NCBI GenBank assembly: GCA_017445475.1
Contig: JAFSUB010000018.1
Coordinates: 47,089-111,088, forward strand
Direction: 5' to 3'
From: Alphaproteobacteria bacterium
GTDB lineage: Bacteria; Pseudomonadota; Alphaproteobacteria; RF32; CAG-239
Length of the DNA stretch: 64,000 nt
Part shown: in pieces, positions 17,545 through 60,193 of the stretch
How the letters are laid out: each line of letters opens with the position of its first letter
Position numbering within the stretch: the first letter of the stretch is position 1
Position numbers and translations under genes: made by a program
Notes under the pieces: model-generated
Databases searched by the model: none
Told to the model about the DNA's origin: nothing
Seen by the model: the letters and a program-made list of their open reading frames with translations, nothing else

Positions 17545-20500
17545 ATGATGCGCAAACTCTCAATTGTCTTGTTTTTGGCGTGTTTTCTTGCGGCTGTTTC
17601 CGCAAGTGCAAAGGTTTGCTTTTTGCCAAATGTGTTTGGCGGCGACAATGATTGCCTGATTGGAATCGGTAACAACAGTAATGATACGAATGATAATGGC
17701 GGCGATGATGATGAACCCGATCCTGACAATCCCTGCGGCGCAAACGCCGTTTCTGAATTTTTAATAGGTGAACACGCTGGGTTGTTTGCTTATTATGAAA
17801 CAGCCTATGGCGCGGGATGTTATATTGTCGGGTGCAGCGGTCTATACGGCTCAACATCTTCTCCCCAAGCGCTCAATACAAGTGTTTTTACGGTTTCTTC
17901 GGCGTCGTATGGCGGCGTTACATGCCATTATGCAACAGGTTGCGCTTCGCCTTATAAAAGAGAATGTTCTGATGGCGCGCCCATTTCAACGTATAATCTT
18001 GACAGTTTAACGTGCCATCAATGCGATGAACAGACAGATTGTCCGACAGTCAACAGCTGTGCAGGATATACGGTTAAAAACGCGCCCGCAAACGGCAGCC
18101 TTGATGGTGCGCCGTGTCAGGTGGTTAACAGCGACTGCAGCAATGGCGATTTGCTTTATAAGTTTAAGTGTGATGACGGGTATGAACCTCAAGGCACTAC
18201 GTGCGTGGCAAAAGAGTGCCAAGGGGCATATGCCACCGAAGCCTCAAAATGTGCAAACACCGGCACATGCAACGGCACATGGTCAATCGGGCTTTCCACC
18301 AACGGCAGATCAGGCGATAAATATTGTTATAACTGCGTTTGCACAGGTGCACAAACCTGCGATGTTGTTTCTTGCGGCGCAGAGGTTTCTGTTCCTAACA
18401 ACGCAACCTGTTCAAAAACATGCACACCGATTGATGCTTCCTGCAATCCGACAGGCACAGAGCGCTGCACGGAGTGGACATGCAATACAGGTTATAAAAA
18501 ATCGGGTTCAGGTTGTGTCCAAAAAACGTGCGGTGATTACAGCCCTTATATATACGATTCGTGCACAAACAAAGAGTGCGATTCGCAAACATGTTCTTCC
18601 GACTCAAAAGCCATAGGTTCGGGCACAAAAACGTGTTATACGGCGCCTTCCGGAAGTTGCGGTCCAAGTTGCACGCCAAACCCGTGCACGGGTTATGATA
18701 CTTATTCAAAACCACCGCATTCACATTGGACAAGCGAGGCCTGCCATTATACTTACGGCGATTCCTGCACGGACGGCGGATATTGGTATAAGGATTGGGA
18801 TTGCGATAGCGGATATATCAAATCCGCTGATAAGAAAAGTTGCATTGAATCATCACCGTCTAATGAAACCTGCACGGCTCAAACCTGCTCGGATTATGGC
18901 TTATCATCGTGTCCGACGGGTGCAAACTGTGATGATTGCCAAATTCAAAATACGGATTGCACGTTGGGCGACACAAAATATAAAGTAACGTCTTGCAAAG
19001 ACGGCTATAAAGAAAGCTCTGGCAGTTGCACGGCAATGACATGTGCTGATTACGACTGGAAAGGCTCATCATGCGGTAGCGGCTATAATGAAACGAAGCA
19101 CCCGAACACAAAGCTCGGGTCAAGTTCTAAAACCTGTTATGAATGCACGGCCATTACTTCGTGTGGATCTTTTAGTGATTATCCGTATGACAGCTGTGAT
19201 AAAGAGTGTGATTCGCAAACCTGCTCATTCGGATATAAATATTTGCGTCGCAACGGGTCGACGTTAAGTTATGAAAAATGCTACGGCGCACCGAGCGGTA
19301 ATTGCAACACAGCAAAAACGTGTGCGAGCGAGCACCCGACAGATGGCACAAAAACCAAGCCGGACAGTTCTTACTACACGTACGACACGGACAACACGGT
19401 AAGCGACGGACCTTGTTATTATAACATTACGGCAAAAAGCTGTCCGGATGTTCACTCGGGCGGCACAACAACCAAACCGGGCGATGGTTGGTCATACAGC
19501 GAGGATACGGTGAATGGAAGTCCTTGTTATTATAATAAGTCTGCCAAGGACTGCTCGGGTGATTATCCGTATACAGAATGCACGGGCAAAGAGTGCGATT
19601 CGCAAACCTGCGCTTCAACAACAATAGCTTCGGGAGACGGCACAAAAACGTGTTATAAAGCCCCAACCGGAAGCTGCCAGACCTGCGCAGATATATCTCA
19701 ATATGATTCTGAAATCGCGTGCGAAAGCGCAAACACTTGCGCCGATTGTTCAAAAGACAACACAACAGGTTGCTTCAAACCAACAGGTTGCGCCTCGAGT
19801 TGTTTGTCAGGCATTACCTTACAAGACTTTTATTCCTACAATTCATACACCTATAACTCTAAAACGTGTTATACATTGAACGGTTGCGCATCGGGGTGGC
19901 AATCAAGCACTTGCAGCGGATATTCCACAACGGGGTGGAAATCTGCCCACAGCTCGTCAACCAAGTGCACACAGTGCGATACGTGTTCATATACCAGTGA
20001 ATCTGCTTGTGAAAATGTGTATTGGTCTTGTTCGTTCCGCACTGAGGGAATTAGCCCGATGACGGCGACTTGCTGGGATGGTGTTTGCGAAAAGAGTATA
20101 TATAAATATCAGCCGGATACTATTCCGGGTGCAAGTTATGACGATAGAGATTGTTGTATAACATCTAATACAACGTATTGCTCAGACTTCTTGTGCGATA
20201 ACAGCCAAGGCTATATTAAATCCGGAAACACTTGCGTGTGCAACACAGCCGGCGGTTGGAGCAACAATGCAGACGGAACATGTTATTGCTCGAAGGATAG
20301 AGAAGTGGATACTTCCGGAAACTGCGTTATCAAACAGGAAACGGGATGCCCCTCAACGGTCATAACCGCTCATGACAAGATTTTGGATTGGTCTTCATAT
20401 TACGATTCTTGCGAAGAGGCTATCACGGCGTTCTGTACGGTTTATAAAACAAATTACAGCAAGTGCAGTAGCAAATACGGCATCGCAAGTAGGAATTGCA

Positions 20501-20556
20501 CGGCCGCAAACCTTAAGAGCACAATGTGCGAAGAGGAGTGCGAACCGGAGCCGTAA
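17545..20556 (+). CDS. Secreted cysteine-rich repeat protein, VCFLP family paralog 1
   Basis: Signal peptide ASA-KVCFLPNVFGG; very dense Cys/Ser/Thr/Gly/Tyr; C.xGY...G..C repeats; homologous to 22931 and 43242. Confidence 0.85.
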   Translation: MMRKLSIVLFLACFLAAVSASAKVCFLPNVFGGDNDCLIGIGNNSNDTNDNGGDDDEPDPDNPCGANAVSEFLIGEHAGLFAYYETAYGAGCYIVGCSGLYGSTSSPQALNTSVFTVSSASYGGVTCHYATGCASPYKRECSDGAPISTYNLDSLTCHQCDEQTDCPTVNSCAGYTVKNAPANGSLDGAPCQVVNSDCSNGDLLYKFKCDDGYEPQGTTCVAKECQGAYATEASKCANTGTCNGTWSIGLSTNGRSGDKYCYNCVCTGAQTCDVVSCGAEVSVPNNATCSKTCTPIDASCNPTGTERCTEWTCNTGYKKSGSGCVQKTCGDYSPYIYDSCTNKECDSQTCSSDSKAIGSGTKTCYTAPSGSCGPSCTPNPCTGYDTYSKPPHSHWTSEACHYTYGDSCTDGGYWYKDWDCDSGYIKSADKKSCIESSPSNETCTAQTCSDYGLSSCPTGANCDDCQIQNTDCTLGDTKYKVTSCKDGYKESSGSCTAMTCADYDWKGSSCGSGYNETKHPNTKLGSSSKTCYECTAITSCGSFSDYPYDSCDKECDSQTCSFGYKYLRRNGSTLSYEKCYGAPSGNCNTAKTCASEHPTDGTKTKPDSSYYTYDTDNTVSDGPCYYNITAKSCPDVHSGGTTTKPGDGWSYSEDTVNGSPCYYNKSAKDCSGDYPYTECTGKECDSQTCASTTIASGDGTKTCYKAPTGSCQTCADISQYDSEIACESANTCADCSKDNTTGCFKPTGCASSCLSGITLQDFYSYNSYTYNSKTCYTLNGCASGWQSSTCSGYSTTGWKSAHSSSTKCTQCDTCSYTSESACENVYWSCSFRTEGISPMTATCWDGVCEKSIYKYQPDTIPGASYDDRDCCITSNTTYCSDFLCDNSQGYIKSGNTCVCNTAGGWSNNADGTCYCSKDREVDTSGNCVIKQETGCPSTVITAHDKILDWSSYYDSCEEAITAFCTVYKTNYSKCSSKYGIASRNCTAANLKSTMCEEECEPEP

Positions 20557-20647
20557 AATAGTGAACTGATGTTACGAGGGTGCTTGCGCTCTCGTGGCAT
20601 AATGTTTTTCCGTTATTCCTCAATCTGTGCGGCGCATCCCCTTTTAT

Positions 20648-20788
20648 TGTCATCCCTTGCACGGCGCGGTTCATCCGTGCATCAAGGAATCTCATCTTTA
20701 AAGCGTCGCACCTTTGGGGTATAAATGCTTCTGCTTTGTTCTAATTTGAAGATGGCTGGACGTTTTCTTGTGAAAACAAGCCATGACA
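20648..20788. repeat. Inverted pair of CGTC-type REP palindromes (REPIN-like)
   Basis: TGTCATCCCTT-hairpin-TC-AAGGAATCTC (20648-20693) and, on the minus strand, TGTCATGGCTT-hairpin-TC-CAGCCATCTTC (20748-20788). Confidence 0.7.
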
Positions 20789-20793
20789 TTTAT

Positions 20794-20858
20794 TATCAAT
20801 ACAAAAACAGCCACCTTTAAGGTGGCTGTTTTTGTATTGGTGCCGACAGAGAGACTTG
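20794..20858 (-). repeat. Duplicated tRNA-Thr 3' end (21 nt) plus terminator
   Basis: 65-bp direct repeat of 21039-21103 with one mismatch. Confidence 0.9.
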
Positions 20859-20860
20859 CT

Positions 20861-20999
20861 TCTTGCAAAAAAAATTAAGTTTTTTGCGTCGGTCAACGCT
20901 TATGTAATGCTTGCGGCGTTGCGCTGGCGCTTCTTGCAAGCAAAACATAAGCTACCGCTGCGAAAAAAAATTGCTCGTTTAAGAGCAATTTTTTTCCTC
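20861..20999 (-). mobile_element. ~140-nt structured element, copy inside a partial tRNA-Thr duplicate
   Basis: GAGG...GCAAGA ends and hairpin layout shared with 59441-59581 and 59680-59819. Confidence 0.75.
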
Positions 21000-21082
21000 G
21001 CCCCGACCCAAGTGGGTCGTGAGTTCTGCCTCCCTTGATATCAATACAAAAAAAGCCACCTTTAAGGTGGCTGTTTTTGTAT

Positions 21083-21158
21083 TGGTGCCGACAGAGAGAC
21101 TTGAACTCCCGACCCACTGATTACAAATCAGTTGCTCTACCAACTGAGCTATGTCGGC
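21083..21158 (-). tRNA. tRNA-Thr(TGT)
   Basis: GCCGACATAGCTCAGTTGGTAGAGCAACTGATTTGTAATCAGTGGGTCGGGAGTTCAAGTCTCTCTGTCGGCACCA. Confidence 0.97.
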
Positions 21159-21305
21159 GCGGTTTTCAAGCAGCATATATACATCACTTTTTTTCCTTGT
21201 CAATAAAAAAATATACTTGTTTGCAAAATAAATCCTTGACAAAAGTTTTGTTGATGGTAGAATCTGCCGCATAAAACTATCATTAACCTTAATTTTTTTT
21301 TAATT

Positions 21306-48916: not shown

Positions 48917-48974
48917 AAAAAATTCTTGACAAGCGGTTTTAAAAAGCATATATAAGCCTTACTTTCCGATTTAT

Positions 48975-49051
<77 letters not shown>

Positions 49052-49085
49052 ATAAAAAACCACCCTTTCAGGGGTGGTTTTTTAT

Positions 49086-49262
49086 TGATTATGGGGTGGG
49101 GTTTGAACCAACGGAGAGTTGGTTCACTACCAGCGAAAGCCAGACGGAAGTATGGCGGTCGGCTTAAAGCCGATGAGCGCCTGTGCGGCAAGCGAAAGCG
49201 AAGCCAAATCCTTCTCCCGCAACCATTACAAAAAGCCACCCAAAGGGTGGTTTTTTTATTGA
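49086..49262 (+). repeat. tRNA-fMet-linked unit: antisense T-arm copy, 80-nt insert, duplicated 3' end and terminator
   Basis: TTTGAACCAACG (49102-49113) antisense; GTTGGTTC[49126-49205]AAATCCTTCTCCCGCAACCA; second terminator. Confidence 0.85.
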
Positions 49263-49288
49263 TTATGGGGGTGGCAAAAGAAGTTGGG

Positions 49289-51922
49289 CTATATCATCTT
49301 CCTTACTTCACCAATAGCCGTTTCAAGCTTTGATGTGTCAGTGCCGCCGGCTTGCGCCATATCCGGCCTGCCGCCGCCGCCGGTGCCGCCGACAACAAGA
49401 GCTGCCGCTTTAACCATGTCAACAGCTGAATATTTACCCGTCAAATCTTTGGTAACGCCCACCACAATTGAGGCTTTGCCGTCTTTATCCGAGCCCAGAA
49501 CAACAATGCCCGATTTAATGGTTTGGTTGATTTCATCAATAAAAGCTTTGAGCTCTTTGGGGTGAACGTTTGGCACAACTTTGCCGACAAACTTAATGCC
49601 GTTGACAACCTCGATTTTGTCTTCATTGTCCGCTGTTTTGTTGTTTACAAACGATTTTTTCAAATCAAAAATATCCTGCTCAAGCTTTTTCTTTTCTTCC
49701 AAAAGATTTGCAACGCGTTGTTCCAAATCATTGATGTTGGTCTTAAGCCGATTTGAGATGCGGTGCATTTTGTCTTCTAAATTTTGCACAAATTTTTCGG
49801 CACTGTCTCCCGTTACGCACTCAATTCGCCTGATTCCGGCAGCAACGGAAGATTCGGATATAATATTAAAATAGCCGATATCGCCCGTTTCGCAAACATG
49901 CGTTCCACCGCAAAGCTCTGACGAATAGGTCTTTCCGTCTTTTTGCATTTGCACCACACGCACTTCATCGCCGTATTTTTCGCCAAACAGCGCCATTGCG
50001 CCCGTTTGAAGAGCGTCTTCCTTGTTCATCAAAAGCGTGTTCACACGATAATTTTCTCTGATTGAGCGATTGACAATGTCTTCAACCTTTCTGATTTCAT
50101 CTTCACTGATTTGCTTTGGGTGCGAAATGTCAAAACGCATATGGTCCGGCCCGACAAGCGAGCCTTTTTGAGCGATATGATCACCCAAAACCGTTTTTAA
50201 GGCCTTGTGCACAAGGTGGGTAACCGAGTGATTGGCGCAGATTTTTTTGCGCCGCTTATCATCAACTTCAAACGAGGCCGTATCAAAAACGTTAACAATG
50301 CCCGAAACAAGCCGGCAAACGTGAACAGTCAAAGCATCAAGCTTATGCTTTGTATCAAGAACTTTAATTTCAAAATTTTTGCCTTTAATGAGCCCCTCAT
50401 CACCGACTTGCCCGCCGCGTTCGCCATAAAAGGGCGTTTGGTTGGCAACAAGATAAAACGTGCCGCTTTCAACCTTTGAAACCATTTCCTGATTTTGAAT
50501 AAGCGCCAAAATTTGCCCGTCGGCTTTTAATGTTTGATAGCCTAAAAATTCGGTTGAACCTAATTTTTCGGCCACATCAAACCAAACTTTTTCGGTGCCT
50601 TCGTCGCCTGAACCTGCCCAGTTTTGACGTGCTTTTTGGCGCTGTTTTTCCATTGCGGCATTAAAATGTTCAACATCAACGCTAATTTTCTTAAGTTTTA
50701 AGGCATCTTCGGTTAAATCAATCGGGAAGCCGTATGTATCATAAAGTTTAAACGCAGTTTGACCGCTTAAAACATCGCCTTCATGCATATTTGCCGTTTC
50801 CGATTCCAAAAGCTTCATACCCGTTGAAAGCGTTTTGCCGAAACGCATTTCTTCAGCCTTTATGGTTTCGCAAATAAGGCCTTCATAACGGTTTAATTCG
50901 GGATATGCTTCGCCCATTTCACGTTGCAACGAGGGTAAAAGCTTATATAAAAGCGGTTCATGAACACCAAGCATATATATATGGCGCATCGCACGGCGCA
51001 TAATTCGGCGCAAGACATAACCTCTGCCTTCGTTTGAAGGCAAAACGCCGTCTGCAATTAAAAATGCCGTTGCGCGCAAATGGTCGGTGATGACATTATA
51101 CGACGACGTCAAATTTTTGTTTGCTTTATCCGTGCCGGTCAGTTTACACAAGTCGGTAATTAAATTTTGGAACAAATCGATTTCATAGTTTGAATGAACG
51201 CCTTGCAAAATCGCCGTCATACGTTCAAGGCCCATACCCGTGTCAATGCAGCGTTTTTTTAAGTTTATGCGCTCACCTGTCGGCAAATCTTCAAACTCGT
51301 CAAAAACCAAATTCCAAATTTCAATCCACCTGTCGCCGTCTTCATCTTTTGTGCCGGGCAGGTCTCCGAAAACGTCTTCTCCGTGGTCATAAAAAATTTC
51401 CGAGCAATAACCGCAAGGACCGGTGTCGCCCATCTGCCAAAAATTGTCTTTTGTTGCAATATCAATCACCCTGTCTGCGGGCAGGCCTGAGATTTTTTTC
51501 CACAAATCGCGTGCGACATCATCGGTGTGAAAAACCGTTACGGCCAATTTGTCTTTTGAAATGCCGAATTCTTTGGTTATAAGCTCCCACGCATAATATA
51601 TCGCTTCTTCTTTGAAATAATCGCCAAACGAAAAATTGCCGAGCATTTCAAAAAAAGTGTGATGGCGCACATCGTAACCGACGCTGTCCAAATCGTTGTG
51701 TTTGCCGCCGGCACGAACGGATTTTTGCGCGGTGGCGGCCCTTGTGTATGCGCGCGTTTCGTTGCCGGTGAACAGATTTTTAAATTGCACCATACCCGAA
51801 TTTGTAAACATCAAAGTCGGATCATTGTCCGGAACAAGTGATGATGACGGCACAATCGTGTGGCCGTTTTTTTCAAAATAGTTCAAAAAAGTTTTGCGAA
51901 TTTGCTTTAAGGTCGCTGTCAT
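49289..51922 (-). CDS. alaS: Alanine--tRNA ligase
   Basis: DPTLMFTNSGM, RHHTFFEMLGNFSFGDYFK, IDTGMGLER, ELCGGTHV, GGGGRPDMAQAGG. Confidence 0.99.
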   Translation of the reverse strand: MTATLKQIRKTFLNYFEKNGHTIVPSSSLVPDNDPTLMFTNSGMVQFKNLFTGNETRAYTRAATAQKSVRAGGKHNDLDSVGYDVRHHTFFEMLGNFSFGDYFKEEAIYYAWELITKEFGISKDKLAVTVFHTDDVARDLWKKISGLPADRVIDIATKDNFWQMGDTGPCGYCSEIFYDHGEDVFGDLPGTKDEDGDRWIEIWNLVFDEFEDLPTGERINLKKRCIDTGMGLERMTAILQGVHSNYEIDLFQNLITDLCKLTGTDKANKNLTSSYNVITDHLRATAFLIADGVLPSNEGRGYVLRRIMRRAMRHIYMLGVHEPLLYKLLPSLQREMGEAYPELNRYEGLICETIKAEEMRFGKTLSTGMKLLESETANMHEGDVLSGQTAFKLYDTYGFPIDLTEDALKLKKISVDVEHFNAAMEKQRQKARQNWAGSGDEGTEKVWFDVAEKLGSTEFLGYQTLKADGQILALIQNQEMVSKVESGTFYLVANQTPFYGERGGQVGDEGLIKGKNFEIKVLDTKHKLDALTVHVCRLVSGIVNVFDTASFEVDDKRRKKICANHSVTHLVHKALKTVLGDHIAQKGSLVGPDHMRFDISHPKQISEDEIRKVEDIVNRSIRENYRVNTLLMNKEDALQTGAMALFGEKYGDEVRVVQMQKDGKTYSSELCGGTHVCETGDIGYFNIISESSVAAGIRRIECVTGDSAEKFVQNLEDKMHRISNRLKTNINDLEQRVANLLEEKKKLEQDIFDLKKSFVNNKTADNEDKIEVVNGIKFVGKVVPNVHPKELKAFIDEINQTIKSGIVVLGSDKDGKASIVVGVTKDLTGKYSAVDMVKAAALVVGGTGGGGRPDMAQAGGTDTSKLETAIGEVRKMI

Positions 51923-59146: not shown

Positions 59147-59281
59147 GTCTGTTATGTTGAAAAATATTGTTCAAATGCTAGCAAATAAGTCTTAACGTTT
59201 TATAAAGATGAAAAAAATTGCAAAATATAAAAAAAGGTCTTGCAAAACGAGTTTGTCTGTGATATGCGTTTTTTTGCTTTC

Positions 59282-59358
<77 letters not shown>

Positions 59359-59440
59359 ATAAAAAACACCTCCTTTACGGAGGTTTTTTGTTGATGAAAA
59401 TAATAAAAACTGCTCGAACTTGTGACCTCGATAGAGGCGT

Positions 59441-59581
59441 GAGGATAAAAAATGCCTTAAACGGCATTTTTTACCGCAAATGGCGCAGTTTTGTTCATTT
59501 GCAAGGAAAGCGACAGCAACCGCAGCAAATGTTACAAAACAAGTGACCGAAGCGAAGTTGCTTTTTAAGCAACGAGCAAGA
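59441..59581 (+). mobile_element. ~140-nt structured element, copy behind tRNA-Val
   Basis: Highly similar to 59680-59819; preceded by a 17-nt antisense of tRNA-Val (59413-59429). Confidence 0.8.
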
Positions 59582-59638
59582 AAGATGTCGGAGACATCTT
59601 GCGATCAGAAATATTATTATTGATGAACATAAAAAAAA

Positions 59639-59855
59639 CGGGACATAGCTCAGCCTGGTAGAGCGCTTGCTTTGGGCGCGAGGATAAAAACAACCTCAAA
59701 ATGTTGTTTTTACCGCAAACGGCGAAGTTTTGTTAACGAGCAAGGGAAGCGACAGCAACCGCGGCAAGTTTACAAAACGAGTGACCGAAGCGAAGTTGCT
59801 TTTTAAGCAACGAGCAAGAAAGATGTCGGAGGTTCAAGTCCTCTTGTCCCGACCA
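59639..59855 (+). tRNA. tRNA-Pro(TGG) interrupted by a 140-nt insert (intron-like or pseudogene)
   Basis: 5' half CGGGACATAGCTCAGCCTGGTAGAGCGCTTGCTTTGGGCGC and 3' half AAGATGTCGGAGGTTCAAGTCCTCTTGTCCCGACCA join to a 77-nt cloverleaf. Confidence 0.85.
59680..59819 (+). mobile_element. ~140-nt structured element inside the tRNA-Pro anticodon arm
   Basis: GAGG...GCAAGA; three-hairpin layout conserved among copies. Confidence 0.82.
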
Positions 59856-59908
59856 TTTTATGATATGGTGTGTGGATTGTATATGATTGAAAAAAAACGG
59901 AGGTTTTC

Positions 59909-60193
59909 GTGAAAAAAGTGGTTTTTGCCTGTTTGATGATTTTTGCTCTTTGTTCTTGCACGACAACTTCCGTTCCACCGATGAGAACGAAAGCCAAAAA
60001 TCCGATTGAAATGGGTGATAAGTTTGGCACAAAGTGCGCTTTATACATTTTGGGAATTTTCGGGCCGTTTGGGAATATGTCTATTCCGGAAGCGGCAGCT
60101 GCCGGCGGTGTGACAAAAGTTACGTATTACGACATTACTTCTAAAACTTATATTTTGTATACCAAACGTTGTCTTAATGTGTACGGATATTAA
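59909..60193 (+). CDS. TRL-like family small lipoprotein
   Basis: Lipobox LCSC; G.KCA..ILG.F...GNMSI.EAA..GGVTKV...D; GTG start with GGAGG SD. Confidence 0.8.
   Translation: MKKVVFACLMIFALCSCTTTSVPPMRTKAKNPIEMGDKFGTKCALYILGIFGPFGNMSIPEAAAAGGVTKVTYYDITSKTYILYTKRCLNVYGY

Follow-up and report, generated by a model that had tools for sequence, protein, structure and literature searches.

In the tRNA-linked repeats (rtT) of the E. coli tyrT locus, units lying downstream of a tRNA gene carry the 3' end of that tRNA. Islands that occupy tRNA genes supply the tRNA with a new 3' end and leave an attL/attR duplication, and bacterial genomes also harbor small structured repeats such as the Rickettsia palindromic elements, the MITEs and the REP-like sequences. 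As presented in the abstracts and listings of the literature, the attP(+) site of the CTX phage and the attC sites of integrons recombine as folded single strands (PMC3442271, PMC4792948, PMC5027507), and ODIRA produces in yeast, at the kilobase scale, inverted triplications by template switching at short inverted repeats (PMC11790251). The modules described here resemble each of these systems in part and have the defining features of none of them.

We analysed a stretch of 64,000 nt (the window) of an alphaproteobacterial genome of 1.33 Mb (27 contigs, 99.6% complete). Downstream of its tRNA-Thr(UGU) gene lies a module composed of the following features, given in the 5' to 3' order of the minus strand:

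21083-21158, minus strand: intact tRNA-Thr(UGU) gene (ARAGORN; Rfam tRNA, 74.7 bits)
21040-21082, minus strand: terminator T1, a perfect 21+21-nt palindrome that begins at the CCA, within copy 1 of a 65-nt direct repeat
21027-21039, minus strand: putative decayed outer inverted copy of the tRNA-Thr 3' half (tRNA positions about 57-76), assigned from the orthologous locus of genome G015
21011-21026, minus strand: antisense piece, the reverse complement of tRNA-Thr positions 41-56 (15/16)
21002-21010, minus strand: sense stub of 9 nt, tRNA-Thr positions 43-51, forming a hairpin with the antisense piece
20859-21001, minus strand: type A structured element, Thr subfamily, about 140-143 nt (nhmmer, alignment and covariation)
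20838-20858, minus strand: duplicated tRNA-Thr 3' piece, positions 56-76, with a CCA end (direct-repeat match)
20795-20837, minus strand: terminator T2, in copy 2 of the 65-nt repeat

This layout (tRNA, terminator, antisense copy, split sense copy, CCA end and second terminator) had been described in the initial annotation, and every item was found in its place. The 65-bp repeat reported there, with copies 245 bp apart, was recovered as a direct repeat of 65 nt, 98% identical and with a spacing of 245 nt; its first copy spans T1 and the 3' end of tRNA-Thr, of which 21 nt lie inside the repeat. The observation that the sense copy, once the element is removed, lacks four tRNA letters at the break was correct to the base. 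T1 is a bidirectional terminator, and the 13-nt stretch following it showed no clear match to tRNA-Thr. The antisense piece of 16 nt is 94% complementary to the tRNA at 21103-21118; its local alignment score of 27 exceeded that of all 200 shuffles of the downstream 330 nt (95th percentile 18, maximum 21), so the antisense match, which covers the interrupted position, is beyond chance. The minimum-energy fold of the Thr module lies far below that of shuffled sequences (z = -6.15).

Two more tRNA genes of the window head modules of this kind, both on the plus strand:

48975-49051, plus strand: tRNA-Met(CAU), read as tRNA-fMet, heading a type B module (ARAGORN)
49102-49126, plus strand: T-arm hairpin of the fMet module, with antisense piece (49102-49113), GAGA loop (49114-49117) and sense stub (49118-49126)
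49127-49205, plus strand: type B element, a three-way junction
49206-49225, plus strand: duplicated tRNA-fMet 3' piece with CCA end, followed by a second terminator
59282-59358, plus strand: tRNA-Val(GAC) (ARAGORN)
59413-59437, plus strand: tRNA-Val antisense piece (59413-59429, 17/17) and sense stub (59432-59437)
59438-59584, plus strand: type A copy 1 of the Val module (nhmmer, alignment)
59585-59602, plus strand: sense piece derived from tRNA-Pro with its antisense after it, forming a hairpin; relatives show the same in their upstream-type modules
59639-59856, plus strand: copy of tRNA-Pro(UGG), broken after position 37 by type A copy 2 (59677-59822)

The proposal that the Thr layout recurs at tRNA-fMet and tRNA-Val held for the layout, which we found at both loci. 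It did not extend to the contents, given that the fMet module is occupied by type B, an element unrelated to type A, and that the Val module is a chimera in which a Val-type left side is joined to a Pro-type right side and then continues into a full copy of tRNA-Pro(UGG) holding a second type A. This interrupted copy was missed by ARAGORN and yielded a weak Rfam tRNA match to its 5' part. An intact tRNA-Pro(UGG) gene is present elsewhere in the genome (C12:26683-26759), at a locus that bears an upstream module in genome G007. A group I intron in the interrupted copy was considered and rejected: no match was obtained at E<=10, the element measures about 145 nt, and the intact tRNA-Pro(UGG) exists at the other locus.

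With the rtT units, the modules share repeats located downstream of a tRNA, carrying its 3' end, lying between terminators and possibly in tandem. They differ in having no match to the RtT model (RF00391), whose only hit, in the fMet module, reached 14.9 bits (E = 2.8) against a gathering score of 45, and in adding an inverted tRNA half, a split forward copy and a structured element common to many tRNAs. In the window no Rfam family except tRNA reached its gathering score; RtT and C4 were absent at E<=10 around tRNA-Thr (20700-21250), and the C4 antisense RNA was absent at E<=10 in 59200-59950 and at E<=5 in 48950-49300. Membership in an already described family, which the initial annotation had named as a possible refutation, was thus not borne out. 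As in tRNA-gene islands, the intact gene is rebuilt, the old 3' end is displaced downstream and accretion may be serial; unlike the islands, the modules carry neither integrase nor cargo, they include an inverted copy and exist in upstream mirror forms, and the element breaks the would-be att core, separating the stub from the 3' piece.

The likeness to attP(+) and attC, as these sites are described in the abstracts and listings consulted, is one of structure and not of sequence: an inverted copy and the direct copy next to it fold into a hairpin similar to a duplex target, and arrays are formed. In our modules the antisense piece, the stub and the 3' piece are predicted to form a hairpin of tRNA positions about 42-76. 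The differences, on the same sources, are that the target is a tRNA gene and not dif or attI, that no dedicated recombinase was found and that the break is variable. The features common to Rickettsia palindromic elements, MITEs and REP-like sequences are a length of 100-150 nt, a non-coding and multi-copy nature, a strong fold, the lack of an enzyme of their own and insertion into stable-RNA or protein genes. Type A is small, non-coding and multi-copy (22 matches in the genome), and filled and empty tRNA-Thr sites exist; it differs in being tied to tRNAs, with tRNA-derived direct and inverted pieces, and it has neither terminal inverted repeats nor a target-site duplication. ODIRA, according to its abstract-level description, has in common with the modules the sense-antisense-sense order and the turns at hairpins, whereas the modules measure tens of bases, recur at many tRNAs and always include a structured element. 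The architecture of the modules matches no described family; from the literature it is set apart at the level of abstracts and listings, none of which, among those found, describes it.

The origin of the antisense piece was clarified by two loci at which the inverted copy is of full length, the orthologous tRNA-Thr locus of G015, which belongs to another genus, and the elongator tRNA-Met on contig C27. At these loci it extends from the CCA complement to about tRNA position 41 and lies directly 3' of the terminator, whose palindrome includes the CCA and its complement, and thus CCA, terminator and inverted copy form one continuous palindrome. This arrangement implies that the tRNA 3' half, the terminator and the inverted half once made up one long palindrome. 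On sequence grounds, the whole 3' half of the tRNA was copied in inverted form, and the antisense piece corresponds to the inner, conserved portion of that copy; the antisense match noted initially at tRNA-Thr is therefore present, and it is not the short isolated segment for which it was taken. In most modules the outer inverted part has decayed, and the inner part survives, forming with the forward stub a hairpin whose loop has 1-6 bases.

As a further possible refutation, the initial annotation had named a failure of the antisense segments to coincide with insertion points more often than chance. In 27 of the 28 distinct modules the antisense piece reaches across the break; located at random within the 46-nt 3' half, it would be expected to do so at 0.41 per module (related modules are not independent). 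Since the piece derives from a copy of the intact 3' half, it spans the break as a consequence of the anatomy, and the coverage by itself does not show a guide. In a sample of loci enriched for elements, the inverted copy was found at 40 of the 115 tRNA loci examined, and at none of the 40 tRNAs with antisense was an uninterrupted forward copy present beside it. Across species, the Thr locus has kept the antisense/stub hairpin, the element core and the 3' piece, whereas terminator and spacer have diverged; its variable hairpins change with compensation, and at tRNA-Val the antisense segment tracks the species-specific T stem. A census of pair changes in the antisense/stub hairpins counted 16 G-U and 1 compensated change against 52 mismatches, a noisy figure, as the alignments overran into the element.

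Type A was aligned from 50 copies, 3 from the window and 47 from other genomes. RNAalifold predicted 21 pairs, in which 94.7% of the cells are paired (40-53% in controls with the partners slid by 1-3 columns) and 137 cells show a double change (8-30 in the same controls); compensatory change occurs at 13 pairs. The fold of type A is supported by covariation. It includes a three-pair helix between the first three bases and a triplet 45 nt downstream, which covaries freely; a block of seven bases, TGACCGA, is invariant. In 44 of the 50 copies, which are related and not independent, the given strand is more stable than its complement (mean fold energy -48.8 vs. -44.4 kcal/mol). For type B, 11 copies yielded a three-way junction of 15 predicted pairs, 6 of them with compensatory change. 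The topology of type B is similar to that of a hammerhead ribozyme, but this identity was discarded: there was no hammerhead match at E<=5, and by eye two conserved residues before the GAUGA block are missing and the stem next to the GUC fails to close as required.

Every one of the 50 type A copies has G or GG as the last bases of its 5' flank. The 3' tail of the element is identical to tRNA-Pro positions 38-44, and its two ends differ from each other and are not inverted repeats. No short duplication was seen at its junctions, where 2-6 nt of the tRNA are missing. These junction bases fit a joining by microhomology and an origin in tRNA-Pro, and the identity of the 3' tail suggests that the family may have begun inside a tRNA-Pro gene, carrying along a few flanking bases. 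The break made by type A falls, depending on the tRNA, after position 19, 37, 46, 53 or 65. In type B the break is regular; in 16 copies at many tRNAs the stub ends in the T loop at 57/58 and the apex lies at 48/49, with a purine-rich loop.

In the genome as a whole, ARAGORN identified 40 tRNA genes, 33 of which were assessable (>=200 nt of downstream sequence). A duplicate of the gene's own 3' end, running to position 76, is present at 12 of these 33, and at 9 the antisense score surpassed all 200 shuffles; decayed antisense pieces were seen by eye at several more. Of the 22 nhmmer matches to type A (about 140-150 nt), three fall in the window, one at tRNA-Thr and two near tRNA-Val; type B (about 80-90 nt) has 6 copies in the genome and 16 in the whole set searched. 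At least two more kinds of element exist in this genome, at tRNA-Leu(UAA) and tRNA-Thr(GGU). BLAST matches to type A, some of them weak, were obtained in all 11 of the other genus members and in 20 of 24 genomes of the family, whereas the 16 genomes representing other families of the class yielded none; the records containing the type A core bear titles of uncultured gut or rumen Alphaproteobacteria. Within the genome, paralogues share about 80-87% identity, roughly the level seen between orthologues of different species, and hence there is no sign of recent activity in this genome. No RNA run containing the stretch was found (shares of at most 0.08), and in four runs only the tRNA was covered, by reads from other organisms.

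Gain and loss of the modules could be followed at the tRNA-Thr locus of 15 relatives. Seven contain the Thr-type A module (one without its 3' part and one cut by a contig end), three have other occupants (another A variant, a truncated reversed A and a type B), four are empty and one is cut by the end of a contig. The terminator of the empty site of G006 is the downstream terminator of the filled sites of G009 and G002, and this implies that the inserted block fills the whole interval from one CCA to the other. The inner terminator of the old Thr module bears no relation to the ancestral one. Modules also accumulate, as illustrated by a type C element nested inside a type A module in G009, by tandem modules (2.x copies) in G006, and by the tRNA-Val locus of G011, where a B module, an A module and a third antisense piece follow in series.

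Type A was found in both orientations between the same tRNA pieces, and when reversed its 5' end again abuts GG, on the other strand. Among 52 copies with a tRNA in the locus, those located downstream of it comprise 25 in the same sense and 12 in the opposite sense, those located upstream are all in the same sense (13 vs. 0), and 2 lie more than 500 nt away; a further 28 copies, many of which sit at the end of a contig, have no tRNA with them in the locus. In many genomes mirror modules precede tRNA-Pro (UGG and GGG) and tRNA-Ala(CGC). Their order is promoter region, decayed tRNA 5' part (to position 37 in Pro and 19 in Ala), type A, a short forward piece, its antisense, a spacer of about 35 nt and the intact tRNA. 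The mirror is inexact: the inverted piece is short, and there is no palindrome where it meets the spacer.

We searched for an enzyme that could mobilise these elements and found no transposase, reverse transcriptase or integrase co-occurring with them. A reverse transcriptase domain (RVT_1) was detected in 0 of 11 other genomes of the genus. The genome itself has a single match, which may be of the DGR type, judging by a bAvd-like neighbour that reaches 22.7 bits against a Pfam cut-off of 40; retro-mobility by an endogenous reverse transcriptase was consequently left without support. Neither the Y1 transposase (Y1_Tnp, PF01797) nor the TnpB domain (PF07282) had a match in this 99.6%-complete genome, and a miniature element of the IS200/IS605 type was rejected for that reason. 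One IS110 copy, on a 2.8-kb contig, lies beside a second tRNA-Leu and has no link to the modules. Eight genes of the Phage_integrase family are present, none inside a module. A type A copy on contig C3, not at a tRNA, lies about 180 nt upstream of a gene for a 497-aa integrase, the only integrase beside a type A copy; as this protein has a close homologue in just 1 of 24 relatives, we treat the adjacency as coincidence. A phage origin was likewise dismissed, both of the 2 pattern matches in viral contigs being chance matches inside ORFs, and so was a link to tmRNA, whose two-piece gene is present and has no type A element.

Taken together, the multi-copy, polymorphic, orientation-free and nested behaviour, the lack of modules without an element and the sense-palindrome-antisense-sense anatomy point to insertion at the DNA level with turns at hairpins. 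The explanation that we tentatively prefer, and to which we give somewhat less than an even chance, is that the modules are non-autonomous, non-coding fold-back insertion cassettes that settle at tRNA genes, keep the tRNA intact and form a lineage-wide family. A cassette located downstream starts with its own copy of the tRNA 3' end and a palindromic terminator, which keep the tRNA whole and terminated; an inverted copy of the tRNA 3' half, continuous with the palindrome, comes next, and then a short forward stub folding back on the inverted copy. The structured element of 80-150 nt (type A in either orientation, type B or others) follows, and the displaced original tRNA 3' end with its terminator closes the cassette. 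As a single strand, the whole could adopt the shape of a dumbbell that copies the tRNA-gene duplex from the variable loop to beyond the CCA, with the element branching off at the break.

Such a structure might originate when an element inserts into a tRNA gene or next to it and the strand switches at hairpins, making a U-turn first at the terminator and then again close to where the anticodon stem begins, and the only products to survive would be those that rebuild an intact, terminated tRNA. Thereafter the cassettes might persist, be lost and perhaps spread or be imported by recombination on the duplicated, conserved tRNA sequence; flanking tRNA sequence, such as the 65-nt repeat of the Thr module, might also serve their homogenisation. 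The antisense piece would then be the inner arm of a fold-back, retained as a hairpin bordering the element, and not a designed guide. Several observations fit this explanation poorly. No intermediate (circle or single strand) and no enzyme was seen, and the genome gives no sign of recent activity. The regularity of the breaks, especially those of type B, looks more deterministic than rare replication accidents; the modules upstream of Pro and Ala are not an exact mirror of the downstream ones; the unrelated inner terminator of the old Thr module is not predicted by a simple local duplication; and the conservation across genera of hairpin, element core and 3' piece at one locus, together with the strand-specific structure, would also fit an RNA function at the level of the host.

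Because type B breaks are regular, because hairpin and 3' piece are conserved across genera and because the fold is strand-specific, other explanations have to be kept in view. The modules could be functional non-coding RNAs, each serving the neighbouring tRNA, in which a constant scaffold would present a variable antisense to the T arm and variable region of the tRNA within a stub-held hairpin, followed by a CCA-ended, tRNA-like 3' piece. We consider this unlikely, though several observations speak for it: covariation reveals selection on the fold, the given strand of type A is the better folder in 44 of 50 copies, the fold of the Thr module stands out from the shuffles, and at the Thr locus hairpin, core and 3' piece outlast terminator and spacer while the variable hairpins change with compensation. 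Moreover, the element follows the orientation of its tRNA in 38 of 50 copies within 500 nt, including 13 of 13 upstream copies, and the antisense keeps pace with the T stem of tRNA-Val. Nevertheless, among 52 cases type A is reversed 12 times, with the surrounding frame of tRNA pieces unchanged, and unrelated elements fill that same frame, which speaks against the guide or splint RNA adapted to each tRNA that the initial annotation had put forward. Selfish repeats typically show what is seen here, namely copies that are nested, truncated or in tandem and vacant orthologous sites, of which there are four; the outer antisense part, the would-be acceptor-like helix, has decayed, and the noisy census of hairpin changes revealed no excess of those preserving pairing. 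The other origin offered in that annotation, a scar of nick-and-template-switch insertion, agrees better with the succession of sense strand, palindromic terminator, antisense and sense, but "scar" is too weak a term for a structure whose hairpin and 3' end are conserved.

Two further explanations invoke recombinases. In the first, which appears to us quite improbable, the modules would be integrative cassettes recombining as folded single-stranded DNA in the manner of the CTX attP(+) or attC: the antisense, stub and 3' piece would be a hairpin copy of the target duplex, a tyrosine recombinase of the host or of a phage would exchange one strand at the edge of the element, and replication would resolve the joint. 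The folded cassette does mimic the tRNA-gene duplex between about position 42 and the CCA, with the terminator as its cap and the element at the discontinuity, different cassettes accrete serially at one tRNA, and the eight integrase-family genes could provide the activity. However, no recombinase tracks the elements, the integrase beside one copy being nearly confined to this genome among the 24 relatives; type A breaks different tRNAs at different positions, whereas a core site would be fixed; the gain of three matching pieces of a new tRNA is left without explanation; and no element was found on viral contigs, the two pattern matches there being due to chance. Those same eight genes, the tandem arrays and the duplication from T loop to CCA, the usual footprint of integration at tRNAs, would also suit ordinary integrase remnants (attL/attR around an island that has largely been deleted, as happens with cis-mobilisable elements) or a tyrT-like unequal crossing-over, with the inverted piece as an incidental feature. 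We hold this to be the least probable of the explanations, and very improbable: the element splits the stub from the 3' piece where an att core would be continuous, an inverted copy is found at 40 of 115 loci (in the enriched sample) and covers the break in nearly every distinct module, mirror modules stand upstream of tRNA-Pro and tRNA-Ala, and the RtT model found no match. Fold-back insertion cassettes thus remain the explanation that we prefer.

tRNA genes are classic landing sites of mobile DNA, whose known occupants bring an integrase, whereas those described here bring none that we could find. Tiny structured elements occupy many tRNA genes of this reduced genome in a regular architecture that includes a backwards copy of the target. 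In practical terms, the modules mislead tRNA finders, as with the interrupted tRNA-Pro, and sit at the contig ends of many metagenome assemblies, and at least two new RNA-like motifs supported by covariation (types A and B) can be added to annotation. A more far-reaching statement, which we regard as doubtful, is that the modules are either new enzyme-less cassettes that home to tRNA genes by means of a folded copy of the target (inverted and direct) and rebuild the tRNA, in about 40% of the tRNA genes of a family, or guide RNAs each directed at its neighbouring tRNA, in which the scaffold is constant and the antisense segment varies; the latter would be a bacterial counterpart of scaffold-plus-guide RNAs aimed at tRNAs. 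If the fold-back copy serves insertion, it would offer DNA a novel route into an essential gene that does not destroy the gene; if the modules are active as RNA, they would constitute a new class of tRNA-directed RNAs.

The type A element, the structured unit of about 140-150 nt found in the tRNA-linked modules, also interrupts a tRNA gene itself. In the source genome tRNA-Pro(UGG) occurs both as a split and as an intact copy:

59639-59856 of the window, plus strand: split tRNA-Pro(UGG), with a 146-nt type A element inserted after position 37
contig C12, 26683-26759: intact tRNA-Pro(UGG)

The split copy was not reported by ARAGORN because the element interrupts the gene.

Type A was also found in a variant form and at sites away from tRNA genes:

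C8:16689-16985, C10:46075-46371 and contig C20; also locus L108: type A variant
C26:38312-38606, C3:9545-9839 and C5:99811-100106; also loci L010, L025 and L123: type A away from tRNA genes

In the variant, the first hairpin is replaced by the tRNA's own terminator, and the tRNA 3' end with which it finishes is reduced to 5-6 bases; both the antisense piece and the stub are lacking. Copies distant from tRNA genes, of which that on C5 is truncated, are enclosed by a long imperfect hairpin with C-rich and G-rich arms, an arrangement that was found repeatedly and in several species.

Directly past the second terminator of the tRNA-Thr module, at about 20601-20794 of the window, lies a member of a separate dispersed repeat family. 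Its ends are palindromic, and at least nine further sites were detected in the source genome and many in its relatives. On C3, as well as at C5:99650-99800, copies of this repeat adjoin type A elements. The tRNA-Thr region is bracketed by two very cysteine-rich long proteins, whose ends resemble each other and which both have a signal-like N terminus:

17545-20556 of the window, plus strand: 1003 aa
22892-25519 of the window, plus strand: 875 aa

In a Halorubrum record from the pattern scan (L089), the 135 nt downstream of tRNA-Val(UAC) likewise contain an antisense piece, together with 23 nt of the tRNA 3' end repeated in forward orientation; this archaeal arrangement is probably unrelated, and the hit of the pattern scan in that record was a chance match.

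Three other loci of the source genome were noted:

C1:66445-67007: two-piece tmRNA gene, alpha-type
C17, a small contig of 2777 nt: IS110-family gene, 320 aa
C19:76017-79622 (L159): reverse transcriptase, 398 aa

The tmRNA gene extends over 563 nt, compared with 355 positions in the model, and the long segment separating its two pieces contains an internal 65-nt repeat. Adjoining the IS110-family gene is a second, slightly different copy of tRNA-Leu(CAG). Next to the reverse transcriptase is a protein of 147 aa whose bAvd-like match is weak, scoring 22.7 bits where the cut-off is 40; this pair suggests a diversity-generating retroelement.
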